From NCBI GenBank assembly GCA_050015375.1, contig JBEKBN010000007.1, positions 1 through 49,297 of the forward strand: DNA of 49,297 nucleotides. The letters run 5' to 3'. A program made the position numbers and the translations under genes. Under the pieces are notes generated by a model. The model was not told the origin of the DNA and did no database searches. It saw only the letters and a list, made by a program, of their open reading frames with translations. This document shows positions 746 to 47,202 of this stretch, piece after piece. Source of the DNA: Minisyncoccia bacterium. GTDB taxonomy: Bacteria > Patescibacteriota > Minisyncoccia > 2-02-FULL-40-12 > IGHO2-01-FULL-4-A. The first letter of the stretch is position 1; each line of letters starts with the position of its first letter.

Positions 746-1024
746 TCACTGGAAACGGCCGGGTTTTTCGATATAACCTTCGATAGAATGATAACCTTCC
801 GAATCAATGTGCACTCCTGGAAACATCGCTATCTTCTTTTTTTGGAGCATCACCAAAAGTGTCGCCTGAAGCTCTTCAATGCTGGTACCGATTCTTTTTT
901 CTTTCAAATATTTTCTGACCTCTCCGACTCTCTGATGGGGTACTCCATCAAATAGTTTTAATATCTCATTCTCAAATTCTTCGTCAGAAAGGTTGACGAT
1001 TTGTTCCACGACTTTAGTTGGCAT
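746..1024 (-). CDS. small hypothetical protein (92 aa), paralog of 349..624
   Basis: ATG 1022-1024. Same conserved pattern as 349..624 and preceded by the second copy of the promoter block. Confidence 0.55.
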   Translation of the reverse strand: MPTKVVEQIVNLSDEEFENEILKLFDGVPHQRVGEVRKYLKEKRIGTSIEELQATLLVMLQKKKIAMFPGVHIDSEGYHSIEGYIEKPGRFQ

Positions 1025-1044
1025 AACTTCCCCCGAATGTGAAA

Positions 1045-1091
1045 GTTCAAAGCTGATTGAAGAATATCAGAATATTTGATATTGTCAAATA
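1045..1091 (-). promoter_or_regulatory. duplicated 47-nt promoter block, copy 2
   Basis: Near-identical to 645..691. Minus strand reads TTGACA (1083-1088) with a weaker -10 TATTCT. On the + strand TTGAAG-17-TATTGT lies 8 nt before the GT2 ATG, so it may be bidirectional. Confidence 0.45.
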
Positions 1092-1092
1092 T

Positions 1093-2145
1093 ATGCAACC
1101 GCGAGTCACAATCAATCTTGTCGTCATGAACGGAGAGAAATATATCCGCCATTGCTTGGATTCGATTTTGAAGCAAACTTTTCTAGATTTTGAAGTCAAT
1201 ATTTTGGATAATGCTTCGACTGATAAAACACTCGAAATCGCAAGAGAATATTCTTCCCATGATTCTAGATTCATGATTCATGATTCATCGGTTAATCTTG
1301 GAACCTGGGGCGGATTCGAGGAATTATTGAAATTTTCGCTTGGCAAATATATCGTCTGCCAATCGGTTGATATTTTACTTGACCCGGATTTTTTGAAAAA
1401 TGCAGTTTTGGAAATGGAAAAAGATGAAAAGATCGGTGCGCTTCAACCAAAAGTTTTGCGCTGGTATTTCAAGAATGGAAAACCGGAATTCACAAATTTT
1501 ATAGATACTTTGGGATTCAAAATCTTCAAGTCGCGAAGAGTTATTAATTTCGGCCACGGCGAAACGGATAGGCCTGATTTCAACCAAAAACGCGAGATTT
1601 TCGGAGTCGAAGGCGCGGTGCCGGTTTTCCGAAAAATTGCTTTTGAAGACTGTCGAATTCTCGTTCTCGGTTTACCCCCACACTCACAGCGTGAGTGTGG
1701 GGGCGAGATTATGGACCACGATATGTGGTGGTATGGGGACGATATTGATCTTGCCTGGCGGATGAGATTGTTCGGCTGGAAAGAGATTTACGCGCCAAAC
1801 GTTTTAGCTTATCATGACCGGTCAACGACTCACGGTTTGAGCAAAGATAAGAGAGATTTCATCAAAATGCGCCGTGAAATTCCCATCCGTAAACGCCGGT
1901 TGGATTATCGGAATACGATTTTGACCTTCATCAAAAATGACTACTTGTCGAATATTATCAAAGATGCTCCTGCGATATTTGTTAGACAAATCGGACTTTG
2001 GGCATACTTTACGATCTATGAACCGTCAATGTATCTCGAGCTTTTTAATATTTGTAAATTACTGCCGATTATGTTAAAAAAGAGAAGAGAGGTCATGAGA
2101 AAAGCAAAAGTTTCGCCACGAGAAATGAGAAAATGGTTCGATTGA
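1093..2145 (+). CDS. family 2 glycosyltransferase
   Basis: MQPRVTINLVVMNGEKYIRHCLDSILKQTF..FEVNILDNASTD and ..YGDDIDLAWRMRLFGW are GT2 hallmarks. Start moved from the TTG at 1057 to the ATG at 1093. Confidence 0.85.
   Translation: MQPRVTINLVVMNGEKYIRHCLDSILKQTFLDFEVNILDNASTDKTLEIAREYSSHDSRFMIHDSSVNLGTWGGFEELLKFSLGKYIVCQSVDILLDPDFLKNAVLEMEKDEKIGALQPKVLRWYFKNGKPEFTNFIDTLGFKIFKSRRVINFGHGETDRPDFNQKREIFGVEGAVPVFRKIAFEDCRILVLGLPPHSQRECGGEIMDHDMWWYGDDIDLAWRMRLFGWKEIYAPNVLAYHDRSTTHGLSKDKRDFIKMRREIPIRKRRLDYRNTILTFIKNDYLSNIIKDAPAIFVRQIGLWAYFTIYEPSMYLELFNICKLLPIMLKKRREVMRKAKVSPREMRKWFD
1261..1288 (+). repeat. GATTCNT heptamer tract (4 units) inside the GT2 CDS
   Basis: gattcta gattcat gattcat gattcat, read in frame as DSRFMIHDS. 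Confidence 0.8.
1675..1703. repeat. perfect 13-bp-stem/3-nt-loop palindrome inside the GT2 CDS
   Basis: cccccacactcac-agc-gtgagtgtggggg, translated in frame as PPHSQRECGG. Confidence 0.9.
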
Positions 2146-7639: not shown

Positions 7640-7848
7640 GGCTAATCCCAAGCGAGTCTCCTCAATCCCTGCGAACCCCGGTTGCTTCGGGCACGCTCAA
7701 AAGAGTGGATTGCACGGTTTGCGAGCAATATAATGGATAAAACACTGCGAGCAAAATCCACGCTTTTGAGCGAACAAGAAATCTCGCTGGGATTTCGAGT
7801 AGTGACCCAAAGGGACCGAGGGTGAGCCTGGTTGGGGATTGAGGGGGC
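7640..7848 (+). repeat. type-A structured repeat (GCACGG junction, TATAAT loop, TCGCTGGG-loop hairpin)
   Basis: Outer arms cctcaatccc (7660-7669)/gggattgagg (7835-7844). Helix cgctcaaaagagtggatt/aatccacgcttttgagcg. GCACGG at 7712-7717, TATAAT at 7729-7734, TCGCTGGG at 7784-7791. Ends 3 nt from the rpmA stop. Confidence 0.8.
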
Positions 7849-9921: not shown

Positions 9922-10425
9922 ATGGCATCAGACGAAAAACTCCCAGGGGACTACGTAGCGGGTTTTATCGATGGCGAGGGTTGTTTTTATCTTACTTATA
10001 GAAGTGAAAAAAAATACAGCCGAAAGGGCAGCCCAACCTATTATCGTTGGCTTCCATATTTTGCAATGACTTTAAGATTGGACGACATAGAAATTCTTCA
10101 TAAAATAAGAAATACACTTGGATGCGGAAATGTCTACAAATTAAGAAATAACAGTAAATGGGGGAGTCAAGCTTACTTTGGAATCCAAAATATAGACGAC
10201 CTTTATAACAAAATAATTCCGTTTTTTAAAAAATATCAACTCCGAGCAAAAAAAAGATTTGATTTCGAATTATGGTGTTCGGCTCTAAATATTTTACACG
10301 CGAACAAAATTCAAAAAAAATCGTGCTCTTTGAATGAAAACATGTTACTCAATAAAATAAGATTTAAAATGCGGATTTATAAAAGTGAGTTGAATAGGGG
10401 ATACAAGAACAACCCACAAGAATAA
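9922..10425 (+). CDS. free-standing single-motif LAGLIDADG homing endonuclease
   Basis: YVAGFIDGEGCFYL is the LAGLIDADG motif. At 167 aa it fits I-CreI-like homodimeric enzymes. No flanking intron or rRNA context. Confidence 0.85.
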   Translation: MASDEKLPGDYVAGFIDGEGCFYLTYRSEKKYSRKGSPTYYRWLPYFAMTLRLDDIEILHKIRNTLGCGNVYKLRNNSKWGSQAYFGIQNIDDLYNKIIPFFKKYQLRAKKRFDFELWCSALNILHANKIQKKSCSLNENMLLNKIRFKMRIYKSELNRGYKNNPQE

Positions 10426-11014: not shown

Positions 11015-12265
11015 CTATGGCAAATAATCATACGGGTTTACGGTGCCATCGAAATAATTAAAATACAACTGATTATTGTGAGCGGTATTCAGATAGGTGA
11101 AAAAATCTTTGTAAATGCTCAAGTGAACATGAGCACCGGTGGTGTTGCCGGTTGCGCCTTCGTAGCCGATGACGGAATCCTTCGTGACCGGAGTTCCGTT
11201 GGCAAGTCCCGACGGTGCTTTCATATGGCCGTACAAACTGACCATGTTATTGGCATGGACGATGGCTACGAAATTCCCCCAGCCGTCATCATATCCGCTG
11301 GCGAGGATCGAACCGGCGTCAATGGGATGGATGGATGACCCCACCGCGCTGGCGATGTCTACGCCGTTATGGGGCGCGCCACCGTATGCGCCCCGTCTTG
11401 CGTAAGCGGTCATGCCATAACCTTGAGTAATAATATAATCATCCAGCGGCCAGCGAATTGACCACATGCCCTTGGCCGGAACACTTGTTGCCGTGACATG
11501 AACAATGAAAGCTCCCGTCGCCAGGGCTTGGGCTTCAAGTTTCTTCAATTGATCAAAGAACGCGGCTTGTTTTGATTCGACATCGGTCAGCATTTTTTGA
11601 TATTCCTGCTCTTTGCCTTTTGTCGCCGTCAGTAGCTGATCTTTGCTTTGCTTGGTATCGGTGACCGCCGATTTTTGTTGAACTTGCTGATCGTTCAATG
11701 TTTCAAGGTCATTCTTCTTTTCTTCGAGCGCGGTTTTATTATTTTGGAGATCTTCGCTCTCTTTTTTGACCAAAACGAGCGTGTCGTTGAGCTGGAGATC
11801 CAGATCCGTATCTTGTTGCATCTGGTCGTAGTAGTTCGACAAGGTCGGATTTTTTATCAGGATCGCGGCCAAACTCGTCTGGTCTCGGGCGGCCATTTCG
11901 GCGATCAGTTTGCCAATGGCCGATTTTTCCTTGACTATCTTATCCTGGTCGTCGAATATTTTGCTTTCAAGATCGGAGATCTCAAGCTTCGCCGTTGATA
12001 TCTGATCACCGGTGATGGAGATCTGGGTGTTCAGCTGAAGGATCTGGTTGTTCAGGATGTTTATCTGCTTCGCCAGCGTATCGGCTTGTTTTTGGCTGGC
12101 ATTGATATTGCTTGTGTATTGGGCGGCTTGTTTGGTCAGGGTATCGATCTGGGAACGAAGATCCAAGATCTGCTGATTAATATCGGCCAGCGCCGGTTTG
12201 ACAAAAAACAAACCCAAAACAAAAAACGCCGACAGAAACGCGATTTTTTTATATCTGAAGATCAT
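11015..12265 (-). CDS. M23 family metallopeptidase with N-terminal coiled coil (EnvC-like)
   Basis: PHNGVDIA..GWGNFVAIVHANNMVSLYGHM..GATGNTTGAHVHLSIY. The ATG overlaps the gltX stop (ATGA). Confidence 0.85.
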   Translation of the reverse strand: MIFRYKKIAFLSAFFVLGLFFVKPALADINQQILDLRSQIDTLTKQAAQYTSNINASQKQADTLAKQINILNNQILQLNTQISITGDQISTAKLEISDLESKIFDDQDKIVKEKSAIGKLIAEMAARDQTSLAAILIKNPTLSNYYDQMQQDTDLDLQLNDTLVLVKKESEDLQNNKTALEEKKNDLETLNDQQVQQKSAVTDTKQSKDQLLTATKGKEQEYQKMLTDVESKQAAFFDQLKKLEAQALATGAFIVHVTATSVPAKGMWSIRWPLDDYIITQGYGMTAYARRGAYGGAPHNGVDIASAVGSSIHPIDAGSILASGYDDGWGNFVAIVHANNMVSLYGHMKAPSGLANGTPVTKDSVIGYEGATGNTTGAHVHLSIYKDFFTYLNTAHNNQLYFNYFDGTVNPYDYLP

Positions 12266-13686
12266 TCCAATTTTTTTATCGCTGTTTTTATTCTTTTTAT
12301 GGCTTCTTCTTTTCCGATGACAAATAAAATTTCCAGTGGATCGGCTGAATATTTTTCTCCGCTCAATGCCACTCGCAACGGCCAATAGACCGCTCCCCTG
12401 TCGCCGTGAAATATTTCCTCGGCTATGTTGTCCAAAATGTTTTTTGTTGTTTCTTTGTCGGTTTCGAGATCTTCTAGCTCTTCAAGTATCTTTTCTAATG
12501 CTTTTTTCGCCCCACTTTTATCGGACTTCTTCCAAGTCAACAATTCCGTTTCGTATTCCGGCGCTTTGAAAAAGTAGTGATAATCCCCTACCTGATCCAG
12601 ATACTCAAGTCGCTCGCGAAAAATGGGAGCCATTTTCATAATTAATTCGTCATCAACGATCCCAAAATGTTTTTTAACGAATGGCAAAACAAGTTTGCAG
12701 ATGCCGGCATCATTTTCCATCTTTAAATATTGGGAATTGAGCCAGTTTAATTTTTTAATATCAAAAACCGCGCCGGATTTGTGGATTTTTTCCAGTTTGA
12801 ATTGTTCAATGATCTCGTTCTTGGTCAGCATTTCTTTTGTCGAATCATCCGGCGTCCAGCCAAGAAGCGCCAGAAAGTTCACCAAAGCGTCCGGTAAATA
12901 ACCAAGAGCGCGATATTCGGCCACCGAAGTCACGCCGTCGCGTTTAGACATTTTCGAACGGTCTGTTCCGAGAATCAGCGGCAAATGAGCAAATTTTGCC
13001 GGTGTCCAACTAAGCGTTTCATAAATTAAAATCTGTTTGGGCGTGTTAGCAATATGATCCTCGCCACGGATGACATGGCTGATTTCCATCATATGGTCGT
13101 CAATTACGACGGCAAAGTTATACAACGGCTCGTTGATATTTTTGGCAATGCTGAAATCCCCGAGCAATTTTTCCTCGAATTCTATTTTCCCCTTGATAAT
13201 ATCTTCAAAAACGATTTTTCTGCTTGAATTGGTATCAACCTTTAATCGAATTATCCCTTCCCCGTGATTCATGATTCGTGATTCATGATTCTTGTGCTCG
13301 CACATATGTCTTGGCGGTTCTTTTTTCTCCATCTGTTCTTTCTGCTCCGCTTCTAGTTCTTCTTTCGTGTGGTAACACCAAAACGCCTTGTCTTCGTCCA
13401 TGAGTTTCTGGATGTATTTCGTATAATATTTTGTCCGCTCGCTTTGGTGGTAGAGCTCGTCCCATTTCAAACCAAGCCATTCAAAGCCCTCGATGATGTC
13501 TTTCTCGTATTCTTTTGTCGAGCGTTCGGTGTCGGTGTCTTCAATTCTGAGAATGTATTGCCCACCCGACATGTGTCGCGCGAAAAGCCAGTTGAAAAGC
13601 GCCGTTCGCGCCGTGCCGATATGCAAAAAACCAGTAGGACTTGGCGCCATCCGAACTCGAATCTTCTCAATTTTGACTTTGGTCAT
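12262..13686 (-). CDS. gltX: glutamate--tRNA ligase
   Basis: RMAPSPTGFLHIGTARTALFNWLFA (HIGH) and KMSKRDG (KMSKS). Confidence 0.95.
   Translation of the reverse strand: MTKVKIEKIRVRMAPSPTGFLHIGTARTALFNWLFARHMSGGQYILRIEDTDTERSTKEYEKDIIEGFEWLGLKWDELYHQSERTKYYTKYIQKLMDEDKAFWCYHTKEELEAEQKEQMEKKEPPRHMCEHKNHESRIMNHGEGIIRLKVDTNSSRKIVFEDIIKGKIEFEEKLLGDFSIAKNINEPLYNFAVVIDDHMMEISHVIRGEDHIANTPKQILIYETLSWTPAKFAHLPLILGTDRSKMSKRDGVTSVAEYRALGYLPDALVNFLALLGWTPDDSTKEMLTKNEIIEQFKLEKIHKSGAVFDIKKLNWLNSQYLKMENDAGICKLVLPFVKKHFGIVDDELIMKMAPIFRERLEYLDQVGDYHYFFKAPEYETELLTWKKSDKSGAKKALEKILEELEDLETDKETTKNILDNIAEEIFHGDRGAVYWPLRVALSGEKYSADPLEILFVIGKEEAIKRIKTAIKKLE
13266..13293 (+). repeat. GATTCNT heptamer tract (4 units) inside gltX
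   Basis: gattcat gattcgt gattcat gattctt, read on the coding (minus) strand as KNHESRIMNH. Confidence 0.8.
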
Positions 13687-14098: not shown

Positions 14099-14240
14099 AG
14101 AATGGGTTAATATTGGAGTATCTTAAGGAACATTAAATGTAATATGAGCTTACAAATTCAGTATATACCCCCAATAAACATCTGTCAAGTCCTTGAAAAT
14201 GGCCCCAAATTGGACGATTCTGAAAGCAATGGCAACTGGC

Positions 14241-16097
14241 ATGTTCATAATTGAAATAATTCCCTTGGTTCACATCCCGCGCAATCAGGTGCAGGTTTTG
14301 AGTTATTTCCATGGCGAGATGCTGAAAGTCGGAGCGGTGGTGGAAATTGATTTCAATCACCGGAAAATAAGAGGCGTAGCTGTGGTCTCGGAACCGTTGA
14401 AAAGCCGGAAACTGGATTTTAAAAAATCAGTTGATTTTGAATTGAAAAATATTTCAAAAGTCATCAGTGCTGAACCGATGGTTTCTGAACGGCAACTGAC
14501 CATCGCAAATTGGCTTTCGAATTATTACTATGCTCCTCTTGGGATCTGTTTGAAAACGATATTACCGCCATTTTGGAATAAAAAGGGTTACAAAAACGAA
14601 ACTCCTAAAAATACTTTGTCGGTAAAGCAAACGTTTCTTATGGTGGCTGAAAATATCGCCGGAAAGTATTTTATGGAAAAATACGCTTCTGAAAAACCGG
14701 TTTATATCTCCAGCGGTTTGAAAAACAAAGAATATTTTGATGTTTGGAATAAGGTCGCCGCCGGCGAATCCAAATTGATCATCGGCACGCGAATCGGACT
14801 TTTTTTACCATTTTCAAATTTGTCTAAAATGATTGTTGATGATGGATCGAACGAAGCATACAAATCCGACATGACGCCAAGATATAATGCCGTGGATTTA
14901 GCGCGATTCGTGGCTAATGTTCATAATTCCGAAGTTATTTCTTCGGATGTTTTCCCGCGAATTGAATTTCCAAAATCAGCCTCTTCAGTTGTAGTCCGCA
15001 AATCACCCGTTGATCGTTCGGTTGTCAACATGATTTCCGAGATAAAGGCCGGTAATTTTTCAATATTTTCTCGCGATTTACAAGATGAATTTTTAAAATT
15101 TAAAATTGAGAATTTAAAATTGATTTTGTATATCCCCCGCCGGGGACACGCCAATTTCATTTTGTGCCAGCACTGCGGGGAAGCATTAAAATGTCCGAAT
15201 TGCAATGTCTCGTTGGTCTTACACAGACAACCCACAACTAATTCCGAGCAGCTTATTTGCCATCACTGCGGTTATTCCGGCGCATTGCCGAAATCGTGTT
15301 CCGTTTGCAAAAGTTATCAATTGAAACCTTTCGGCATTGGCATTGAAAGAGTTGAAAGTGAAATTAAAAAATACTATCAGCGGGCCAACCTGAAAATGCC
15401 GACTCTTTTTCGTCTCGACAGCGATTCCGTCAAGGACGAAAGAGACGAGGAAAATATTATCAATGATTTTCTTGGCGCCGAATCAGCCATTTTGCTGGCA
15501 ACACAAATGATATTCAGCCACAAACATCGTCTCGCAAATAATTTGCAAATCAAGCCGGTTATTGGCATAATAACAGCGGATTCACTTGTAAATATTCCCG
15601 ATTACAAAACCGAGGAATCGCTTTTTCGGCAATTAACTTTACTGGCCGGCTTCGGCAAAAGATTGATAATTCAGACCCATGATCCGGAAAATCCAGCCAT
15701 TAAGTGCTTCGCCGGCGGCGATGTTTCCGGTTTTATCAAATCGGAATTAAAAAATCGGGAAGAACTTTCATATCCGCCGTTCAGCCGATTCATCAAGATA
15801 TCTTTCAAACATTTTGACAATTTTAAAGCCAAGCGGGAAATCGCCATAGTCGCCGAGAAATTGAAACAGGTATTGCGCGGTGACAGATCAAGATTTGATA
15901 TTATGGGTCCGTCGCCAGCATTCATTTCAAAAGAAAAGAATTTTTATATTTGGAGTTTGATCTTGCGAGATAAACAAATGTTGGAGCTTCCGCTTGACTC
16001 CGGCGCCGCAGAAATAAAAACGCGCAATGAGTTACTGCGCGTTGTGCCCGGCGGGCGTGGCTGGATAATTGACATTGATCCCAGAACCGCCATTTGA
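14241..16097 (+). CDS. priA: primosomal protein N' (PriA) homolog with degenerate helicase motifs
   Basis: Cys-rich region CPNCNVSLVLHRQ..LICHHCGY..CSVCKS and the overall PriA layout are present. Walker A (GxGKT) is absent and DEEH reads DDGS. Start is uncertain (TTG 14193, ATG 14199, 14229 or 14241). Confidence 0.8.
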   Translation: MFIIEIIPLVHIPRNQVQVLSYFHGEMLKVGAVVEIDFNHRKIRGVAVVSEPLKSRKLDFKKSVDFELKNISKVISAEPMVSERQLTIANWLSNYYYAPLGICLKTILPPFWNKKGYKNETPKNTLSVKQTFLMVAENIAGKYFMEKYASEKPVYISSGLKNKEYFDVWNKVAAGESKLIIGTRIGLFLPFSNLSKMIVDDGSNEAYKSDMTPRYNAVDLARFVANVHNSEVISSDVFPRIEFPKSASSVVVRKSPVDRSVVNMISEIKAGNFSIFSRDLQDEFLKFKIENLKLILYIPRRGHANFILCQHCGEALKCPNCNVSLVLHRQPTTNSEQLICHHCGYSGALPKSCSVCKSYQLKPFGIGIERVESEIKKYYQRANLKMPTLFRLDSDSVKDERDEENIINDFLGAESAILLATQMIFSHKHRLANNLQIKPVIGIITADSLVNIPDYKTEESLFRQLTLLAGFGKRLIIQTHDPENPAIKCFAGGDVSGFIKSELKNREELSYPPFSRFIKISFKHFDNFKAKREIAIVAEKLKQVLRGDRSRFDIMGPSPAFISKEKNFYIWSLILRDKQMLELPLDSGAAEIKTRNELLRVVPGGRGWIIDIDPRTAI

Positions 16098-16276: not shown

Positions 16277-16729
16277 ATGGAAATAGTCAAAAACCCTGAT
16301 AAAATCTTACGCCTAATTATGAAACCGGTCAAGAATATAAGTTCTGAAACTTTGAAATTGGCCGAAGAGATGAAAACAATCATGAAGACCAGCAACGGCG
16401 TCGGCTTGGCGGCAAATCAGGTCGGTGTTGATCTGCGCGTTTTTGTCATTGACGAAAATCTGGCCAAAGAAAATAATGTGCCTGAAGTTTATTTCAACCC
16501 GGAGATAACCGAATATTCCAAAGATCTCGCCGAGATGGAGGAAGGTTGTTTGAGTTTACCCCAGTACTGGAAGGATATAAAACGCTCCAAAAAGATAAAA
16601 TTCAAAGCCACCGGCATTGACGGAAAAAAAATAAAAATCAAAGCACGCGGTTTTTTGGCGCGGGTTCTTCAGCACGAAGTTGATCACTTGAATGGATTGC
16701 TAATTAAAGATCGTCTTAATGAAAAGTAA
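16277..16729 (+). CDS. def: peptide deformylase
   Basis: GVGLAANQVG, EGCLS, HEVDHLNG. Confidence 0.95.
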   Translation: MEIVKNPDKILRLIMKPVKNISSETLKLAEEMKTIMKTSNGVGLAANQVGVDLRVFVIDENLAKENNVPEVYFNPEITEYSKDLAEMEEGCLSLPQYWKDIKRSKKIKFKATGIDGKKIKIKARGFLARVLQHEVDHLNGLLIKDRLNEK

Positions 16730-17600
16730 CGGTAAAATTATTTTTTTCGGCACATCTGAATTCGCCGTGCCGGCGCTGGAAGCGTTTTTTAACGCTGGCT
16801 ATGAAATTGGCGCCGTTATCACCACGCCCGATGAACCGGTCGGACGAAAACAAATTTTAACGCCTTCACCGGTTAAGTTTTGCGCCGAAAAACTAGGATT
16901 AAAAATTTTACAACCCCAAAAATTAGATTCCGAATTTTTAAAAATTCTTCAAACTACCAACCACAAACTACCAACTACTCTCGGTATCGTCGCCTCCTAC
17001 GGCAAAATAATTCCCAAAGAAATCATTGATTCGTTTCCGCTTGGCATCCTCAATATTCATCCGTCTCTTTTGCCGAAATATCGCGGGCCGTCGCCGATCC
17101 AGACCCAGATTTTGAACGGCGAGACGGAAATTGGAGTGACGATAATCAAAATTGACGAACTGGTGGATCACGGACCAATTGTCGCTGAACAAGAATCAAG
17201 AATCATGAATCATGAATTGTTTGAAGATGCGCAAAATAAATTATCCCGAATCGGAACCAACCTCCTGGTCAAAATATTGCCCGATTATATTTCCGGAAAA
17301 ATAAAACCGATTGAACAAAATCACGATCTGGCATCCTTCACAAAAAAGACATCCAAAGAAGATGGCAAAATCGACTGGAACAAACCGGCTGAACAAATTT
17401 ATGATCAATTTCGGGCTTTTCACAAATGGCCGGGAGTTTGGACGATTTGGAAAAACAAAATTTTGAAGATCACGGATCTGCGCGTTCAAAACGGCAAGAT
17501 TGAGATCCTCCGTCTTCAACTCGAAGGCGGAAAAGAGATGTCTTTGAAAGAATTTGTCGCCGGCCACAAAGATTTTATTGTCGGCAAACTCGGCCGGTGA
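16719..17600 (+). CDS. fmt: methionyl-tRNA formyltransferase
   Basis: IIFFGTSEFAVP..., NIHPSLLPKYRGPSPIQ. Overlaps def as in the usual def-fmt operon. Confidence 0.95.
   Translation: MKSNGKIIFFGTSEFAVPALEAFFNAGYEIGAVITTPDEPVGRKQILTPSPVKFCAEKLGLKILQPQKLDSEFLKILQTTNHKLPTTLGIVASYGKIIPKEIIDSFPLGILNIHPSLLPKYRGPSPIQTQILNGETEIGVTIIKIDELVDHGPIVAEQESRIMNHELFEDAQNKLSRIGTNLLVKILPDYISGKIKPIEQNHDLASFTKKTSKEDGKIDWNKPAEQIYDQFRAFHKWPGVWTIWKNKILKITDLRVQNGKIEILRLQLEGGKEMSLKEFVAGHKDFIVGKLGR
17191..17218 (-). repeat. heptamer tract (4 units, inverse orientation) inside fmt
   Basis: aagaatc aagaatc atgaatc atgaatt, read in frame as QESRIMNHEL. Confidence 0.8.
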
Positions 17601-17612
17601 TATAATATTCTT

Positions 17613-18356
17613 ATGCAGGAAGAAAATGTTCTCGAAGTTCAAAATCTGTCCGTTGAGTTCAACGGCGGTTTGATCTTGGATAATTTGAATTTTTCGGTGA
17701 GGCGCGGGGAAGTTCTTGCTATCGTCGGTCCCAACGGCGCCGGAAAAACCGTTTTGTTCCGTTCGCTTCTTGATCTTATCCCCTACTCCGGCGAAATAGA
17801 TTGGAAGCCCGGGATCCGAATCGGTTATGTCCCGCAAAAATTATCCATTGAGCATAATTTTCCCTTGACGGTCAGGGAATTTTTGGAAATCAAATCTGCC
17901 GCTGGAGTTCGCTATTCCCATCACGATATTTTTCAAGCGCTGGAGTCGGTCGGCATCAAAACCGGCACCGACGAGAAACATCATCTTGAACATCACATTC
18001 TGAACCGGCCTTTGGGCAAACTTTCCGGCGGCGAACTTCAGCGGATCCTTATCGCTTGGTCAATGATCGGCAAACCCGATGTTTTGCTTTTTGACGAACC
18101 CACGGCTGGCATTGATGCCGGGGGCGAGGAAACCATTTATCAACTTCTCCACAAACTCCAAATGAGCGCGACGCTTACGATCTTAATGATCTCGCACGAT
18201 CTGAATATCGTTTATAAATATACCGACAATGTTCTTTGCCTGAATAAAAAAATGCTGGCTTTTGGAAGACCGAAAACCATTTTAAGCCAAGAAGGATTGG
18301 CGTCGCTTTATGGCGGCGAGACCGAAATAATCCGCCACGACCACGGTTACAATTAA
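17613..18356 (+). CDS. metal (Zn/Mn-type) ABC transporter ATP-binding protein
   Basis: GPNGAGKT, LSGGELQR, LLFDEP. Resembles ZnuC/MntB-type ATPases. Confidence 0.85.
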   Translation: MQEENVLEVQNLSVEFNGGLILDNLNFSVRRGEVLAIVGPNGAGKTVLFRSLLDLIPYSGEIDWKPGIRIGYVPQKLSIEHNFPLTVREFLEIKSAAGVRYSHHDIFQALESVGIKTGTDEKHHLEHHILNRPLGKLSGGELQRILIAWSMIGKPDVLLFDEPTAGIDAGGEETIYQLLHKLQMSATLTILMISHDLNIVYKYTDNVLCLNKKMLAFGRPKTILSQEGLASLYGGETEIIRHDHGYN

Positions 18357-18392
18357 TTCGTATATTCGTAAAAATTCGTAATTTCGTAGTAA
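18355..18392 (+). repeat. 38-nt ATTCGTA-repeat block, copy 1
   Basis: aattcgtatattcgtaaaaattcgtaatttcgtagtaa fills the stop-to-start gap. 37/38 identical to 35834..35871. Confidence 0.85.
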
Positions 18393-22352: not shown

Positions 22353-22556
22353 AGTAAGCTGGCGGTTGTTGTCTTGAGGGCGCTCATTTCTGTGAGCCCG
22401 AAGGCTTGGAGGGCGTGATTGCATGGCCTGGCAACATGAGAAAATGGTAAAATATTTCCTGCCATTTTCTCGTGTTGCCAGAATCCACAGAAATGAGCGA
22501 GCCGGAATTCTCGCTGGGAATTCCGGCGTCCCGAGAGATAATAGCTGCCAGCTAAA
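22353..22556 (+). repeat. type-A structured repeat filling the dnaK-dnaJ gap
   Basis: Outer arms agctggc/gccagct. Helix cgctcatttctgtg/cacagaaatgagcg. GCATGG at 22421-22426. Hairpin cctggcaacatgagaaaatgg/ccattttctcgtgttgccag. TCGCTGGG at 22511-22518, closed by ggaattc/gaattcc. Confidence 0.8.
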
Positions 22557-24458: not shown

Positions 24459-24622
24459 AAGCGAGCGGATGTTATTTCTAGGGCGCTCATTTCTGTGCGA
24501 TTGCACGGTTGGCGAGCAGTATAATGTCGGCGTAAGCCACTGCGAGCCAAATCCACAGAAATGAGCGAGTCGATTTCCTCGCTGGGGAAATTGACATCCC
24601 ATGAAATAACATCAGCGAGCTT
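24459..24622 (+). repeat. type-A structured repeat filling the grpE-dnaK gap
   Basis: Arms aagcgagcggatgttatttc/gaaataacatcagcgagctt. GCACGG at 24503-24508, TATAAT at 24520-24525, TCGCTGGG at 24579-24586. Confidence 0.8.
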
Positions 24623-31395: not shown

Positions 31396-31543
31396 AGCTC
31401 GCCAATATGGCTTTTGCGGACTTAGGAAATCCCAGCGAGATTTCCGTCATCCGGTTGTCGGATGCCGTTGTCGTTTTTTGATTACAAAAACCGAACCGTG
31501 CCAACGGCACCGACAACGGCCGCCCGAGCCATATTGGTGAGCT
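31396..31543 (-). repeat. type-A structured repeat (family sense on minus strand)
   Basis: Arms agctcgccaatatgg/ccatattggtgagct. CCCAGCGA at 31431-31438 and CCGTGC at 31496-31501. The reverse complement closely matches 42121-42225. Confidence 0.75.
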
Positions 31544-32910: not shown

Positions 32911-33135
32911 TATTTTTGACTTTCAATAATAATCCGGCGACTAGGCGAGGCGATTGTCTTTCTGGGCACGCTCAAAAGAGTGGATTGCATGGTTTGCGAG
33001 CAGTATAATGGACAAGACACTGCGAGCAAAATCCACGCTTTTGAGCGAACGAGAAATCTCGCTGGGATTTCGCGTGGTGACAAGAGAGATAATCGCCGAA
33101 GCTAGCCGGAGATTAAAAATGGAAAGTCAAAAATA
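32911..33135 (+). repeat. type-A structured repeat downstream of rplU
   Basis: Outer arms tatttttgactttc (32911-32924)/gaaagtcaaaaata (33122-33135) and ggcgattgtctt/gagataatcgcc. The core is about 94% identical to 7690-7810. GCATGG at 32987-32992, TATAAT at 33004-33009, TCGCTGGG at 33059-33066. Confidence 0.8.
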
Positions 33136-34289: not shown

Positions 34290-34528
34290 ATCGACTCGCC
34301 GTTCGTGGCGTCTGTTGTCTCGAGGGCGCTCATTTCTGTGAGCCCGAAACTCCGGAATCTTGAGGATGAGGGCGTGATTGCATGGTCTGGAAACATCGGA
34401 AAGTTGTATAATATTTTCCTACAACTTTCCGATGTTTCCAGAATCCACAGAAATGAGCGAGACGATTTCCTCGCTGGGAAAATCGACGTCCCGAGAGGCA
34501 AAAGACGCCACGGCCATGCGAGAAATGC
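34290..34528 (+). repeat. type-A structured repeat downstream of murF
   Basis: Arms cgtggcgtct (34304-34313)/agacgccacg (34503-34512). GCATGG at 34380-34385. Hairpin ctggaaacatcggaaagttgta/tacaactttccgatgtttccag with a TATAAT loop (34407-34412). TCGCTGGG at 34471-34478. Confidence 0.8.
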
Positions 34529-35833: not shown

Positions 35834-35871
35834 AATTCGTATATTCGTAAAAATTCGTAACTTCGTAGTAA
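35834..35871 (+). repeat. 38-nt ATTCGTA-repeat block, copy 2
   Basis: aattcgtatattcgtaaaaattcgtaacttcgtagtaa abuts the ftsI stop. An inverted atacgaat at 35812-35819 pairs with 35835-35842. Confidence 0.85.
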
Positions 35872-38070: not shown

Positions 38071-38961
38071 TTAATTCTTTATTACAACCCTCAATTTCGC
38101 GCTTCTTGAATTCGGATTTTGCTTTTTTTCTTCAAGACCGGCAACAACCGGTTTTTTCACGAGCAATGCTACTTCTCCTTTTTTCGCCGCTTCCCGGAAA
38201 ATATTTTTAACGATTCTATCCTCCAGCGAATGAAACGATATCACCGCCACTCTGCCGCCGATCCGAACCGTTTCGATCGCTTTTTTTATGCCGTTCTCGA
38301 CATTTTCCAGCTCGTGATTGACCACGATCCTCAATGCCTGGAAAGTTCTGGTCGCGAAATGAATGTGTCCGGTTCTATATCTGAACGGCACGCCTCTTTT
38401 TATCGCCTCTACCAGTTGAAATGTCGTCTTTATCGGCCGCTGTCTTCTCTCGGCTATGATCTCTCTGGCGATTCCCCGCGAATATCTTTCCTCGCCGTAT
38501 TTGTAGATCAAGTTCGCAATATCTTCTTCGTTATAATTATTTAAAATATCTGCCGCCGTCTCACCTTCTTCATTGTTAAATCTCATGTCGAGAGCTTCGT
38601 CTTTTGAAAATGTGAATCCCCTTTCGCTGTCGGTCAATTGCCATGTGGACATGCCCAGATCGAATAAAATTCCGTCTGTGCTCGTAAAACCGTGACTATT
38701 GGCAATTTTCTCAATATTCACATAGTTATCATTAACCGCGATCAATCTATCTCCAAATTCATGATTCGTGATTCTTGATTCAAGATTCTTGTAAATTTCC
38801 GGGTCCCACTCGATTCCGAGCAACCCGCCGCCCGGCTTTATTTTTTCTAATATCGCCAACGCGTGTCCGCCGCCGTTGATGGTCGCGTCAATAAACTTCT
38901 GTCCGGGCTTAGGATCAAGATATTCAATAACTTCGTTTAAAAGAACCGGCGTATGGATCAT
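38071..38961 (-). CDS. rsmH: 16S rRNA (cytosine1402-N4)-methyltransferase
   Basis: HTPVLLNEVIEYL..DATINGGGHA, SFHSLEDRIVK. Confidence 0.93.
   Translation of the reverse strand: MIHTPVLLNEVIEYLDPKPGQKFIDATINGGGHALAILEKIKPGGGLLGIEWDPEIYKNLESRITNHEFGDRLIAVNDNYVNIEKIANSHGFTSTDGILFDLGMSTWQLTDSERGFTFSKDEALDMRFNNEEGETAADILNNYNEEDIANLIYKYGEERYSRGIAREIIAERRQRPIKTTFQLVEAIKRGVPFRYRTGHIHFATRTFQALRIVVNHELENVENGIKKAIETVRIGGRVAVISFHSLEDRIVKNIFREAAKKGEVALLVKKPVVAGLEEKKQNPNSRSAKLRVVIKN
38756..38790 (+). repeat. GATTCNN heptamer tract (5 units) inside rsmH
   Basis: aattcat gattcgt gattctt gattcaa gattctt, read on the coding strand as NLESRITNHEF. Confidence 0.8.
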
Positions 38962-39392: not shown

Positions 39393-39517
39393 GCGAAATT
39401 GTCCAAGAGCGAAGCGATTGGGTAACAATTTCAGCACCCAGCACATAACGAGTTATGTGCTGGGTAAGAATTTGTTTCCGTGCTCGTTTCGCTACGCTCA
39501 ACTGCGCTCGGACAAAT
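39393..39517 (-). repeat. type-C rod-like cassette, copy C2, abutting the mraZ ATG
   Basis: In gene sense: ATTTGTCCGAGCGCAGTTGAGCG..CACGGAAACAAATTC..ACCCAGCACATAACTCGTTATGTGCTGGGT..TGGACAATTTCGC-ATG. Confidence 0.75.
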
Positions 39518-42077: not shown

Positions 42078-42270
42078 GAAAGTGAGCTTGTGAATCTCTG
42101 CGAACCGGGTTGTTTTCAGGGGCCGTTGTCGGTGCCGTTGGCATGGTTCGATTATTGTAATCAATTAATCGACAACGGCAACCGACAACCGGATGACGGA
42201 AATCTCGCTGGGATTTCCTAAGTCCCCGGAAAGCAATCCGGTGAGCCTGGTCCGGGATTCACAAGCGAGC
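42078..42270 (+). repeat. type-A structured repeat
   Basis: Arms gcttgtgaatc (42086-42096)/gattcacaagc (42256-42266). Helix ccgttgtcggtgccgttg/caacggcaaccgacaaccgg. GCATGG at 42141-42146 and TCGCTGGG at 42205-42212. Ends 2 nt from the stop of 42273..42746. Confidence 0.8.
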
Positions 42271-42272
42271 AA

Positions 42273-42746
42273 TTAGAGTCCGAGTTTGTTTATCAGCTTC
42301 TCATGCGGGCCCTCGAACAGCACGCGGATGAACCGGTCAAACATGGCGAAGCGATATTGGAACTCGTCTTTTTCCATGATCGAAAATTTTATTTCCTTCC
42401 CCACTTCCGCTTCCAGCGATTTCAAAAACGGCCTTAATTTTCGGTTTTCAATGTCATCGCCGACAATGAGTAGGTCCACCACCGTCGGGTCGGGGTTCTC
42501 TTTGTTGATGAAGATCCCGGCTACGATCGCCAATTTAATTCTCCCCAGTTTATTTATTCTCTCGATCATATTGTTTTTCTCCGCCGGTGATGATTTCAAT
42601 AACAGATCGCGAAGTTCGTAAAGAAATTCAAAAGAATTGTTGATAACGTATTTCGCTCCCCGAGACGCGTGACTGTTGGCTAAAACTGCCGGAATTTTTC
42701 TTCGGCGGCGGCTAGGATGTTTAACTTTTCTATTTTTCTTTTTCAT
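42273..42746 (-). CDS. distal part of a split wHTH regulator (wing + C-terminal domain)
   Basis: A Lys/Arg-rich start, then AKYVINNSFEFLYELRDLLLKS and a C-terminal alpha/beta region. The ATG sits directly after cassette C3. Confidence 0.6.
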   Translation of the reverse strand: MKKKNRKVKHPSRRRRKIPAVLANSHASRGAKYVINNSFEFLYELRDLLLKSSPAEKNNMIERINKLGRIKLAIVAGIFINKENPDPTVVDLLIVGDDIENRKLRPFLKSLEAEVGKEIKFSIMEKDEFQYRFAMFDRFIRVLFEGPHEKLINKLGL

Positions 42747-42886
42747 AGAATTGTCCGCGAGCTAGACGAAGTCGCAGCGAGCGGGAAACAATTCATGACC
42801 CGCCTAAATATGCGAAGCATAATTTTTGGCGGGTAAATAACTGTTTCCGTGCTCGGCTCACTTCGTTTGCCTGCGCTCGGACATTT
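42747..42886 (-). repeat. type-C rod-like cassette, copy C3, separating two halves of one regulator gene
   Basis: In gene sense: TAA-AT-AAATGTCCGAGCGCAGGC..CACGGAAACAGTT..ACCCGCC..GGCGGGT..GAATTGTTTCCCGCTCGCTGCG..CTAGCTCGCGGACAATTCT-ATG. Confidence 0.8.
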
Positions 42887-42888
42887 AT

Positions 42889-43077
42889 TTATTTCTGTTT
42901 TATCAACCCGATACCGACAAGTTTCTTTATTTCTCTTTTCACGACTTCGGGATCCTCTTGAACATGATCAGCCAGTTCTCGGACATTAAAACTGGCCGGC
43001 GCATTCCGAAAAATATACTTGAGTATTTTGACCCGCAGGTTCGAACCCAGCAGTTCCTCAAGGATTTTTTTTGACAT
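42889..43077 (-). CDS. proximal part of a split wHTH regulator (ArsR-like helix-turn-helix, 62 aa)
   Basis: LLGSNLRVKILKYIFRN..FNVRELADHVQEDPEVVKREIKKLVGIGLI ends right after the recognition helix. Confidence 0.6.
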   Translation of the reverse strand: MSKKILEELLGSNLRVKILKYIFRNAPASFNVRELADHVQEDPEVVKREIKKLVGIGLIKQK

Positions 43078-43233: not shown

Positions 43234-45315
43234 GTGGAAAAAATATCTCTAAAACCGAGTTTCCGAGAAATCCTCCACAAGGGCAATGAACCAGAAGTTT
43301 TTTTCGATATCCTGTCTTTTCCGGGCTCAACCACCCAAGAGAAAAATTTGGGCTCTCTCATTGTTTTAAGCTACCTCCGCCAGAAAGAAAACGACTTGTC
43401 TTACCTTGTCAGTTTGGTTTCATCGCTCGCCAAGCGCGAATTTTATTCTCCCCGCTCCATCACCGAACAAGACCCCAAAGCCGCTTTTGAACGAACCTTG
43501 AAAAAGTTGAATGAGATCTTGGTTGAATATTTTGAAAAACAGGATTTTTCGCTGAATCTCGGCTTGGCGGCGATCTCGGGTGACAATATTTTTATCTCGC
43601 GGCTGGGCAGGTTTAAAGTCGCCCTGACCCGAGATAACGAGTACATCGACATCCTCAGCAACGTCAGTTTGTTTAGCAAGGAAGACGGCGCTGAGCGACA
43701 ATTCGCCAATGTCATCTCCGGCAAGCTCAAAGCCGGCGACAAGATTTTCGCCTACTTCCCCATCCGTTCCATTGCCACTCGAGAAAGGATCTTAAATCCC
43801 CTTTTCGTCAGCGAAAAGCAGAATGATTTCGCGAAAAAAATTGACGCTTTGGCCGAAAATTCGGCGACTTTCGCCTGTTGCGGAATTCACATCAATATTA
43901 ACCAGATCAAGGAAATTCCGGTGGAATTCAATTTGCCTCCGGTCTCGCCCGAACCGAAATTGGCGGCGGTTGAGATCGCGCCTGAAATTGGAAAAGCCAT
44001 TGATAAAAAAGCATCAAAAAAAGCCGAGCAGCCGGTCTATCCCGTCCGATCCGTCTATAAACAACCCCCAAACCCCGAATCGGTTGAAACAAAACCCGTG
44101 GCGCCGATCGTCGCCCATCCTGAAATTCTTCCCGAACCGGAAGCCGGCGCTCATTCTATCGGCCCAACAAATGTCATTCGGGCCGAGCTTTCCGTCGCCA
44201 AAAGGAGCAATTTTGCGACCGGTTTAGCTTCTAAGATCGCCGGCTTGCCTATCTTTAATCGGACAAAAAAATTAAGCGTCGTCGGACGAACCCGCCGAAG
44301 CGGTTTGAAATGGATCGTTATTGCCGTTATCACGGTAGTTGTGGTTTCGTCCGGATGGATGCTCCTCAAGCATCGGGGCAATTCGGCTCAGACCGCGCTG
44401 GTGAAAAAGGCCTCTGATAGTTTGCAATTAGCCAAATCCCGTTTGACCCAAAACGACAGCCGAGACGCCAGAAGTATTCTTCAGGGCGCGCTGGCGGCGA
44501 TCGGTAACGCCACCGGCCAAAATGTGGCGGCGGTGAAGAGTGACATCACCAAAACATTGGACATCATTGACCAAGTCAGCGACAAAAAAGCCACTCAATT
44601 CGCCGATCTGTCATCCCAAAACCCCGGTTTTTCTTTGATCGCCGCTTCCGGCGGGAATGTTTACGCTGTCGGCCAGGACAATAAACTTTATTCAATCACC
44701 GCCAGTAGCAATGCCGTTCTTGGCCAGACAAAATCCACTCCAAAATTCCTGCAAGCGGATAATTCATTCGTCTCCGCTTTTGACGGTAACGGTTCGACGG
44801 CGATCTTTGACTTGAAGAAAAGCAAATTGGCGGAGTTTCAACTTAAAGACGCGGTTACCGCCAATTGCGCCGTTTTTTACCAAAATAATTTATATAATCT
44901 TTCCGGTGGAACCATTTACAAATATGCCGACGCGGTCTCCGGTGGAATTACCCGCGCTGATTGGGGCACCGTGGATAACGCCAGCGGCCCTTTGTCGATC
45001 GCCGCTGACGGAAATATTTTTGTTTTGTCAAAAGACGGAAGCATCACCGAAATGTATAAAGGAAAAAAGACATCCGAGTTCACGCTTTCTGTCGCTCCGA
45101 CCGATCAAAACCAGATCTTCACCAGCAAGGATTCCTCCTTTATCTATTTGGCCGACGCGGCTGACTCGCGGGTATATGTTTTTGACAAAACCAGCGGTTC
45201 CCTGAAAACAACTTATGATGTCAGCAATGTCGGCCAGATCAAAAACATCTCCGTCGCCGATGACGGCACGGTCTGGCTGGCGACAGCCAATTCGATCTGG
45301 CAAGTAAAACCGTAG
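43234..45315 (+). CDS. large membrane protein with a C-terminal beta-propeller-like repeat region
   Basis: 693 aa. Central TM helix WIVIAVITVVVVSSGWMLL. The C-terminal half has repeated motifs of the type YAVG..KLY, IFVLSKDG and VYVFD. GTG start as in the ORF track. Confidence 0.55.
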   Translation: MEKISLKPSFREILHKGNEPEVFFDILSFPGSTTQEKNLGSLIVLSYLRQKENDLSYLVSLVSSLAKREFYSPRSITEQDPKAAFERTLKKLNEILVEYFEKQDFSLNLGLAAISGDNIFISRLGRFKVALTRDNEYIDILSNVSLFSKEDGAERQFANVISGKLKAGDKIFAYFPIRSIATRERILNPLFVSEKQNDFAKKIDALAENSATFACCGIHININQIKEIPVEFNLPPVSPEPKLAAVEIAPEIGKAIDKKASKKAEQPVYPVRSVYKQPPNPESVETKPVAPIVAHPEILPEPEAGAHSIGPTNVIRAELSVAKRSNFATGLASKIAGLPIFNRTKKLSVVGRTRRSGLKWIVIAVITVVVVSSGWMLLKHRGNSAQTALVKKASDSLQLAKSRLTQNDSRDARSILQGALAAIGNATGQNVAAVKSDITKTLDIIDQVSDKKATQFADLSSQNPGFSLIAASGGNVYAVGQDNKLYSITASSNAVLGQTKSTPKFLQADNSFVSAFDGNGSTAIFDLKKSKLAEFQLKDAVTANCAVFYQNNLYNLSGGTIYKYADAVSGGITRADWGTVDNASGPLSIAADGNIFVLSKDGSITEMYKGKKTSEFTLSVAPTDQNQIFTSKDSSFIYLADAADSRVYVFDKTSGSLKTTYDVSNVGQIKNISVADDGTVWLATANSIWQVKP

Positions 45316-45890: not shown

Positions 45891-46037
45891 GCTAGAATTG
45901 TCTGCGAGCTAGCTTGTAAAGCGCAGCGAGTAGATAACAATTCTTGCACCCAGCACATATTTCGTGTTGCGAAATATGTGCTGGGTAAGCGACTGTTTCC
46001 GTGCTCGCTTCGCTTTGCTCAACTGCGCTCGGACATT
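45891..46037 (-). repeat. type-C rod-like cassette, copy C4, between rplJ and rplL
   Basis: In gene sense: AATGTCCGAGCGCAGTTGA(rplJ stop)GCAAAGCGAAGCGAGCACGGAAACAG..ACCCAGCACATATTTCGCAACACGAAATATGTGCTGGGT..GAATTGTTATC..CTAGCTCGCAGACAATTCTAGC-ATG. Confidence 0.8.
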
Positions 46038-46689: not shown

Positions 46690-47202
46690 TCAGTGGCAAA
46701 TCGGGCAATTTTGTTTGTTTATCTGTAAACTGCAATCAGCCGCGCTTTGGTCCTCTATCGCTATGTCATTTTCATCATAACAAAGACCGCTTGGACTGGT
46801 TACGCCGCTACCACCTGAGTTGGAACTGCTCGCCGGTTTTGAACCAGTGCCAGCACTCGGATTGGACACTGAGTTAGACGACTGATTTACTAGTCCGCTG
46901 AAATCAAAGGAGTTTGAGACCAAGTCCGGATTGATGACATACAAAATAAGATAGGCCGAGAACAAAATGATAGCGCCAATAACGGCGTTCTTCATTATAT
47001 CCTGCGCTTTGTGAATATTGCCCGGGTTGGCGGCGGCGGTCAGATACAAAAATCCGCCCCAAAGGAATCTGACGAATATCAAAATACCGACGATGGTTAT
47101 CGAAAAAGAATATATACTGCCCATGAAATCACCGATGTTCTGCGAGGTGCTGAAATCAGGTAAAGCGACGGCGGCATGGGCGATGTTGATCAGGAAATTC
47201 AT
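46690..47202 (-). CDS. T4SS-pilin-like (TrbC/VirB2-type) membrane protein with a Ser/Cys-rich tail
   Basis: IVGILIFVRFLWGGFLYLTAAANPGNIHKAQDIMKNAVIGAIILFSAYLILYVINP resembles the pilin family common in CPR genomes. Confidence 0.6.
   Translation of the reverse strand: MNFLINIAHAAVALPDFSTSQNIGDFMGSIYSFSITIVGILIFVRFLWGGFLYLTAAANPGNIHKAQDIMKNAVIGAIILFSAYLILYVINPDLVSNSFDFSGLVNQSSNSVSNPSAGTGSKPASSSNSGGSGVTSPSGLCYDENDIAIEDQSAADCSLQINKQNCPICH

Follow-up and report, generated by a model that had tools for sequence, protein, structure and literature searches.

Heptanucleotide tandem repeats held in frame within essential genes of a Patescibacteria genome

Tandem copies of a single 7-nucleotide (nt) unit, GATTCNT or its complement, were located in frame within four genes on contig JBEKBN010000007.1 of a Minisyncoccia bacterium (Patescibacteria; GenBank assembly GCA_050015375.1). 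The stretch analysed, hereafter the window, comprises 49,297 nt (positions 1 to 49,297, forward strand) and represents a housekeeping region of the genome, with dnaK-dnaJ-grpE-hrcA, priA-def-fmt, cysS, dnaB, recR, mraZ-rsmH-PBP-murE, and several ribosomal-protein genes. By Pfam, the open reading frames (ORFs) hosting the arrays encode a GT2 glycosyltransferase, GluRS (gltX), Fmt, and RsmH, four mutually unrelated proteins. The organism is present in peat metagenomes, among which ENA ERZ27250144 k141_567701 is the window contig; its closest species-level relatives are Candidatus Yanofskybacteria (GluRS identity 65%). We read the tracts, with a probability of roughly 0.5, as copies of the genome's dominant heptanucleotide simple-sequence repeat (SSR), embedded in essential genes and with their stop codons edited out. 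The arrays are a feature of the DNA itself; they are old, stable in position, cleared of in-frame stops, and change in concert. Essential coding sequence is generally considered closed to non-triplet microsatellites, since the gain or loss of a single unit ruins the gene. The repeat class is known but unexplained, and its location inside essential genes is the unusual part.

The original prediction, made from the sequence alone, described in-frame heptamer tracts of 4, 4, 4, and 5 units in the GT2 gene, gltX, fmt, and rsmH (Table 1). Sequence, Tandem Repeats Finder (period-7 calls at 1258-1288, 13265-13291, 17190-17217, and 38757-38788), and Pfam all agree with that description, and the peptides it quoted match the translations. 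On the coding strand of the GT2 gene, the array reads GATTCTA followed by three units of GATTCAT, giving the peptide HDSRFMIHDS; the gltX array falls in a length-variable loop that follows the PRHxCxHK motif. A three-unit pattern, GATTCNTGATTCNTGATTC, with no more than two mismatches allowed, matched the window nine times as compared to 0.02 expected from shuffles, and the exact two-unit pattern matched nine times as compared to 0.10 expected. No exact two-unit copy was found in the window outside the four tracts, and allowing one mismatch added two degenerate matches only. When 24-nt windows were scanned, period 7 returned five hits (0.07 expected), while periods 4-6 and 8-10 returned none. 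Chance is excluded as the origin of the arrays by these pattern and period counts. GATTCNT is the unit of four of the window's six period-7 tracts. All four, and both arrays of other families, lie in frame within genes, whereas long simple-sequence repeats (LSSRs) are typically intergenic and under-represented in coding regions.

The peptide shared by unrelated proteins is a consequence of the repeat length. As 7 and 3 have no common factor, reading a heptamer array in any frame yields one and the same cyclic heptapeptide: a perfect GAATCAT array reads ES*IMNH (the asterisk marking a stop) in all three, with TGA every 21 nt, so that the cyclic heptapeptide is ES[R/*]IMNH. In each tract, the very unit that would bring TGA into frame carries a substitution. 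In the GAATCAN arrays, the unit that would otherwise give the in-frame TGA ends in a base that is not T. In the orientation found in the GT2 gene, TGA is obligatory every third unit; the window avoids it with TA at that unit, and a relative of 89% identity (P0121) does so with TG. The variable base of the unit is explained by stop-codon avoidance together with base composition. The original prediction had attributed the repeated peptide to only one frame being tolerated; that account does not survive, since every frame gives the same heptapeptide and the rsmH tract is open in two frames. Unrelated proteins thus share the peptide because they share the DNA, not because frames were filtered. The prediction's wider suggestion of a microsatellite filtered by selection is upheld by the DNA-level arrays with their in-frame stop codons edited out.

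The same family extends beyond the window. A first metagenome scan, using the flank of another array, found nothing; a second recovered a contig, L502, that belongs to the same population (100% identical to contigs of sequencing run X1, and at the same read depth as the window in runs X1-X3). Three further GATTCNT arrays, two of them intergenic, were located there in the S10 ribosomal-protein operon. One (L502:2239-2272) forms the last nine codons and the stop of the L29 gene, rpmC (KKNHESRIMN*), and ends 10 nt before the start of the S17 gene, rpsQ. The other two form an inverted pair (L502:4837-4903) that fills the spacer between the S19 and L22 genes and reads (GAAUCAC)3 ... (AUGAUUC)4 in the mRNA; it is predicted to fold into a hairpin of -20.8 kcal/mol (z = -3.95) and ends 4 nt before the start codon of the L22 gene, rplV, at which no Shine-Dalgarno-like sequence is visible. 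Another array was found on an 11-kb contig of the same read depth. In total, at least eight loci of the family were seen in this genome, which thus has one dominant dispersed unit, as genomes with LSSRs do.

GATTCNT is the dominant heptamer of this genome and is not globally special. Arrays of at least four exact units occur in more than 120 species genomes of many phyla, and genomes with GATTCNT arrays have many other heptamer arrays too. Among IMG/VR viral contigs, GATTCNT formed 65 stretches, as compared to 54, 27, and 21 for three composition-matched control heptamers; because the controls are similarly frequent, any heptamer repeated four times appears to be common in environmental sequence. 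Of 69 period-7 arrays at unselected Patescibacteria loci, three had a GATTCNT-type consensus unit and five a GAATC or GATTC core. A special cross-phylum status for the motif was accordingly rejected.

Comparison with orthologues indicates that the arrays are old, vertically inherited, and fixed in codon position, while recent spread is not supported by these alignments. The gltX array occurs at the same codons in L123 and L124 (65% amino acid identity), with units GAATCAC/T, GAATCAG, GAATTAT, and GAATCAA; the GluRS of L125 and L126 is without the array and has an unrelated loop of the same length. For rsmH, the orthologue L252 (58% identity) has the same five units, unit by unit, variable bases included. 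The array is the best-conserved 11-codon window between the two genes, at 94% nucleotide identity against a mean of 63%, ranking first of 286 windows (third positions, 41%). The fmt array is retained in drifted form in L333 (56%; GAATCAA, AAATTAT, AAATTAT, and GAATTAT) and L334 (52%; GAATTAC, GAATTAT, GAATTTT, and GAATAC). Relative to array-free orthologues, the arrays add zero to two codons in GluRS, RsmH, and GT2, and the array region of Fmt aligns without a gap, also to orthologues from outside Patescibacteria. The original prediction had proposed a spreading or short mobile sequence and an alignment to show that each tract is an insertion; it named distant orthologues with the same residues as evidence to the contrary. 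Such orthologues exist for gltX and rsmH at 58-65% protein identity, with a drifted copy in fmt, and neither spread nor insertion stands.

These alignments also bear on the alternative that a mobile or templated element (like a Rickettsia palindromic element or miniature inverted-repeat transposable element, or added by a telomerase-like enzyme or retroelement) was inserted into four genes and survived only in frame. Such an element would account for the same sequence of about 30 nt in unrelated genes, in a genome rich in other dispersed short repeats, and for the boundaries shared by the gltX, fmt, and rsmH arrays (one end CAAGAATC, the other CATGAAT). However, the arrays consist of direct repeats only, with unrelated flanks, and have neither terminal inverted repeats nor target-site duplications. 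Empty-site orthologues show no difference in length, the arrays are orthologous across 58-65% protein identity, and other lineages have different units in these codons. A search of the window genes found neither a reverse transcriptase nor a transposase. We consider this alternative largely refuted and very improbable. The shared 5' boundary CAAGAATC was considered in its own right as a sign of a copied element and rejected, as it is mostly a periodic continuation of the array and not significant.

In Fmt genes of other Patescibacteria, period-7 arrays of other units recur in the same places. Among 81 Fmt genes, 30 period-7 tracts were found, as compared to 0, 0, 0, and 1 tracts of periods 5, 6, 8, and 9. 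They are concentrated at residues ~71-76, ~157-162, ~244-248, and 258, and the Fmt of the window occupies two of these hot spots, with AACTACC at residues 76-86 and GAATCAN at 158-167. At the aligned GAATCAN position, 15 of the 81 orthologues have a strong period-7 signal, while any other period exceeds the threshold in at most one; the units there include TCAAATC, AAAACTT, AAGGATT, CAAATTC, GAAATCC, TTTTCAA, CTTCCAG, and others. The first hot spot holds TTNY-, LKIENLK-type, and other arrays in the orthologues. RsmH has six period-7 tracts, four of them at residues 58-68, and both GT2 and RsmH orthologues behave like Fmt in this respect. No period-7 array was found at the aligned fmt and rsmH tract positions in orthologues from outside Patescibacteria. 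The arrays thus occupy a few permissive, length-variable segments, which other Patescibacteria lineages fill with period-7 arrays of other units.

The preference for period 7 is not confined to the aligned positions. Across 585 kb of fmt and rsmH loci, picked without regard to repeats, 69 period-7 tracts were counted, as compared to 31, 34, 11, and 3 for periods 5, 6, 8, and 9, although the length threshold was stricter for period 7. An in-frame GAATCNN array was also located in IleRS, ArgRS, PolA, a MiaB-like protein, RecG, WecG, and TrmD of other Patescibacteria.

One of the IleRS genes (L038:3759-7418; Patescibacteria UBA2135) has two separate heptamer-coded segments, IGIMNHELGIMNF and RVRNQESRIRNQEQ. 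It also has a His_Phos_1 histidine-phosphatase domain inserted between segments of the catalytic core, at residues 540-716.

Units within an array change together. With units at the second Fmt hot spot brought into phase by means of the conserved DHG anchor, identity was 0.84 within an array and 0.53 between orthologues, and the units there share an NNAAAT(T/C)-like consensus. In L334, a C-to-T change at unit position 5 appears in each of the first three units (GAATT for GAATC), with the results of S to L, a synonymous Ile change, and H to F. Since the parallel change falls on different codon positions with different effects on the protein, it is the signature of concerted evolution at the level of DNA. 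Judging from these alignments, the array at this hot spot is ancient and homologous and has been drifting in concert.

Such observations leave little room for the alternative that an ESRIMNH-type motif is useful to the protein and was acquired convergently, with the DNA periodicity secondary. In its favour, the GAATCAN array of Fmt encodes what is predicted to be part of a well-folded strand and turn: in the AlphaFold2 model (mean pLDDT, the predicted local distance difference test score, of 93), it forms the end of strand 154-161 and the following turn at pLDDT 95-98, while the AACTACC array is the least confident surface loop. The GT2 peptide DSRFMIHDS, moreover, resembles the segment D-x-R-I-x-V-I common in GT2 enzymes. 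Against this alternative, the periodicity is exact at synonymous positions, and the parallel unit changes hit different codon positions with different amino acid outcomes. In GT2 the peptide differs although the DNA unit is the same, copies of the family also lie between genes, and the four host proteins are unrelated. We regard convergence on a useful peptide as highly improbable, slightly more so than insertion of an element.

The SSR reading can be put as a sequence of steps. Arrays would arise and be homogenised by strand mispairing in a 7-nt register, with short-patch repair or conversion. Selection would then admit only those states that preserve the frame, are free of stops, and are roughly neutral in length, in segments of the protein that tolerate them. 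The unit shared by unrelated genes would represent a genome-wide family, kept alike by ectopic conversion or by sequence-specific constraint, and the cyclic heptapeptide ESRI(M/T/K)N(H/Q) would be a by-product. That the repeats lie inside essential genes would follow from the near absence of non-coding DNA in Patescibacteria genomes.

Several points weigh against this reading. The SSR model leaves both the 7-nt register and the single dominant unit unaccounted for; the footprint of the polymerase is the reason for the register suggested in the literature. Because a one-unit step shifts the frame, growth by slippage within an essential gene needs either three-unit steps or length-neutral conversion, and neither was directly observed. 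No change in unit number and no insertion or deletion in an array was found in the assembled contigs of four runs, although contigs hide rare variants. A neutral microsatellite, furthermore, should decay or vary, yet the GATTCNT arrays vary less than their flanks. Between strains, 0 of 31 bases of the fmt array were changed while its flanks were 2.5% divergent; the corresponding values were 0 of 35 and ~6% for rsmH, 1 of 28 and ~15% for GT2, and 0 of 34 and 2% for the L29 array. Taken together, one difference was observed in ~128 bases where ~8 were expected from the flanks (P ~0.003, by a rough Poisson estimate). The GATTCNT arrays are identical in strains of 96.5-97.5% identity; the arrays of other families, unlike them, do vary between strains. 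The AACTACC array of fmt has three differences in 32 nt from a strain of 97.5% identity (L332), and the TTTAAAA array of priA is heavily altered in one of 96.5% (L122). The rank of the rsmH array, first among 286 windows for nucleotide identity to L252, is a further point of the same kind. The low divergence between strains may reflect ectopic conversion toward the family consensus, or a constraint specific to the sequence.

The second of these possibilities is central to a different explanation, in which the arrays are cis-acting sites. A lineage-specific factor, such as a cold-shock-domain or OB-fold protein, would read one heptamer per subunit on single-stranded RNA, single-stranded DNA, or duplex DNA, and so tag housekeeping transcripts or loci. 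The unit would co-evolve with the factor, and gene density would push the sites into tolerant coding segments. The original prediction had offered a shared protein- or RNA-binding site as one of its readings, and the lower strain divergence of the GATTCNT arrays lends it some support. Conservation above the flanks is seen for these arrays and not for other-family arrays in the same genes, and each genome has one dominant unit. The placement of an array at the rpmC stop, 10 nt before rpsQ, and of a pair directly upstream of rplV would also suit such sites, as would the likeness to TAACTGA repeats found upstream of ribosomal-protein genes (PMC4679880). CspB, as cited in that paper, binds one monomer per heptamer, and a preference for four units has been reported for the heptamers of Xanthomonas and Nostoc as well. 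The register expected of a single-strand binder is present, and no stable mRNA structure is predicted for the coding arrays (z = 0.31, -0.93, 1.36, and 1.12), though the intergenic pair folds into the hairpin described above.

On the other side, no candidate factor was found in the window; its genes were searched for cold-shock domain, reverse transcriptase, methyltransferase, and transposase genes, and none was found. Orientation relative to transcription is not constant: the GT2 array runs opposite to those of the other genes, and the L502 pair has one arm in each direction. A single genome, and in the case of fmt a single gene, has several different units, and the codons concerned are occupied by unrelated units in different lineages. 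The conservation signal itself comes from a small number of sites and could also be the product of ectopic conversion between the numerous copies. We therefore hold cis-acting sites to be possible rather than probable. A stronger form, in which the arrays would constitute a nucleic-acid-level code in tolerant loops and strands of the essential enzymes of these ultra-compact genomes, read one unit per subunit by a factor with which the unit co-evolves and kept since before the Paceibacteria lineages diverged, seems doubtful to us; if it were true, a signal in DNA or RNA, and not protein function, would determine the sequence of some segments of conserved proteins. Stable RNA structure in the coding arrays was tried as a candidate and rejected on the z values given above. 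Identity with a known RNA family was rejected as well, as no Rfam family overlaps the arrays.

Because every unit contains GATTC, the arrays might also be clusters of GANTC methylation sites (of the CcrM/HinfI type) with an epigenetic function; the Xanthomonas repeat GGGAATC (PMC4692102) likewise contains GANTC. Outside the arrays, however, GANTC sites are neither enriched nor depleted, with observed and expected counts of 65 and 63 for GAATC, 58 and 68 for GATTC, 20 and 27 for GACTC, and 19 and 24 for GAGTC. No methyltransferase domain, sought as cognate to GANTC, was found in the window genes scanned, and the homologous arrays of relatives contain drifted units, GAATT and AAATT, without the site. 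Methylation or restriction at GANTC was rejected for want of any frequency bias, and we rate it the least probable of the explanations considered.

In preferring the SSR reading, we place the arrays beside repeat systems described in other bacteria. Heptamers are an over-represented long SSR in many bacteria, each genome with its own unit and four units preferred (PMC4692102, PMC4679880). The arrays resemble the prokaryotic heptameric LSSRs of Mrazek et al. (2007), as these are described in PMC4679880 and PMC4692102, in having tandem 7-nt units beyond chance, a favoured period of 7, a lineage-specific distribution, and replication slippage as the proposed origin. By the same descriptions, LSSRs with non-triplet units are rare in coding DNA; in contrast, the window arrays are all in frame in housekeeping genes, most arrays of related loci are also in frame, and orthologous codons are kept across deep divergence. 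Like the Xanthomonas GGGAATC and Nostoc GGGGA(T/C)T repeats (Rehm et al. 2015, PMC4692102), GATTCNT is one dominant dispersed heptamer of about four units, with occasional inverted pairs capable of forming hairpins and with repeats that are transcribed; the Xanthomonas unit shares its GAATC core. Those repeats, however, are G-rich, have been proposed to form quadruplexes, and are intergenic and under-represented in genes. GATTCNT cannot form a G-quadruplex and nevertheless shows the four-unit preference, an argument that this preference is not specific to quadruplexes.

The TAACTGA repeats of marine Beggiatoaceae, cyanobacteria, and Bacteroidetes (MacGregor 2015, PMC4679880) and the short tandemly repeated repetitive (STRR) heptamers of cyanobacteria are likewise genome-specific. 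As with GATTCNT, copies of TAACTGA are located in ribosomal-protein operons directly upstream of starts, contain stops in one orientation, and encode a cyclic heptapeptide when within ORFs. Their in-ORF copies are mostly at protein ends or in hypothetical proteins, whereas GATTCNT is internal in GluRS, Fmt, RsmH, and GT2. With contingency-locus SSRs, the arrays share non-triplet tandem repeats in genes, in which a one-unit change shifts the frame. Unlike those loci, which are hosted by dispensable surface, restriction-modification, and virulence genes, they are hosted by essential translation and cell-envelope genes, and they are stable in the long term, without unit-number variation in the contigs examined here. 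Rickettsia palindromic elements are in-frame palindromic insertions of 100-150 nt that add a segment of peptide. They, too, are short repeated DNA tolerated in frame in conserved proteins, but the present arrays, direct repeats spanning ~30 nt, are not palindromic elements and do not clearly lengthen the protein.

Relevant literature on heptamer repeats in Patescibacteria, also known as the candidate phyla radiation (CPR), was not found. In this group, the repeats are common, stable in position, and long-lived in aminoacyl-tRNA synthetases, Fmt, RsmH, PolA, RecG, and other proteins, with units that change in concert. The many orthologous arrays with lineage-specific units offer a tractable comparative system for asking why bacterial repeats favour 7 nt and why each genome has its own unit. 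The present case also indicates that the four-unit preference of G-rich heptamers is independent of quadruplex formation. On a practical level, the tracts burden the marker genes of CPR phylogeny with low-complexity heptapeptide segments and with artefacts of alignment, and they also break assemblies. The assemblies of the divergent X2 strain break at the intergenic inverted pair.

Other differences between strains were noted along the way. The gltX gene had no differences in 1425 nt from L122, while the flanking genes were ~3.5% divergent and priA up to 10%; this suggests, from the pattern of identity, a recent recombination or sweep of the segment. In strain variants from runs X2, X3, and X4, a joint from 14914 to 15116, with its end within the TTTAAAA array, leaves out or replaces 201 nt of priA. 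In the same runs, a 66-nt replacement in fmt (16856-16923) lies just upstream of the AACTACC array, and structural variation is therefore found adjoining arrays of the minor families.

Table 1. Positions of period-7 arrays and of further intergenic repeat families in the window.
Feature	Position	Strand	Context and peptide
GATTCNT array, ~4.4 units	1258..1288	+	in frame in GT2 gene (1057-2145 +)
GAATCAN array, 4 units	13263..13293	-	in frame in gltX (12262-13686 -); NHESRIMNHG
GAATCAN array, 4 units	17188..17218	+	in frame in fmt (16719-17600 +), residues 158-167; QESRIMNHEL
GAATCAN array, 5 units	38756..38790	-	in frame in rsmH (38071-38961 -), residues 58-68; KNLESRITNHE
AACTACC array, ~4 units, other family	16947..16978	+	second array in fmt, residues 76-86; QTTNHKLPTT
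TTTAAAA / AATTTAA array, third family	15091..15123	+	in priA (14193-16097 +); FLKFKIENLKL
Repeat family	31418-31521 / 42121-42225		
Repeat family	39408-39514 / 45920-46035 / 42746-42894		
Repeat family	22360-22550 / 34306-34510 / 24550-24600		
Repeat family	622-694 / 1022-1094		

For its size, the genome has an unusual wealth of short dispersed repeats. A 38-nt intergenic element was located at 18355-18392 and 35834-35871 of the window and at 2445-2483 and 7770-7859 of L502, in copies 97% identical. Its sequence (AATTCGTATATTCGTAAAAATTCGTAATTTCGTAG) includes four TTCGTA motifs, spaced 8, 10, and 8 nt apart, and its ATTCGT core resembles a GATTCGT unit; it fills gaps between adjacent genes in either orientation, and in one place two copies form an inverted pair. 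A direct repeat of 118 nt, whose two copies (7689-7806 and 32964-33081) are 94% identical, lies just downstream of the L27 gene and of the L21 gene, usually neighbours but here 25 kb apart; it has a TATAAT-like box and an inverted repeat, with no match in Rfam. The further intergenic families listed in Table 1 are 50-200 nt long and 72-93% identical, and some are also present in L502 and other contigs of the same depth.

The pentamers AGACT/AGTCT, AGCCT/AGGCT, CTCAG/CTGAG, and GCAGC/GCTGC were 2.5- to 4-fold rarer across the whole window than expected from a third-order Markov model, a depletion that looks like avoidance of a restriction system. Among the remaining genes, a 693-amino acid (aa) ORF without a Pfam match (43234-45315) and a 170-aa ORF with a type IV secretion pilin-like domain (46690-47202) adjoin the L10 gene. 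A free-standing LAGLIDADG homing-endonuclease ORF (167 aa; 9922-10425) was located between protein-coding genes, outside any rRNA gene, and is kept in the related strain L122.

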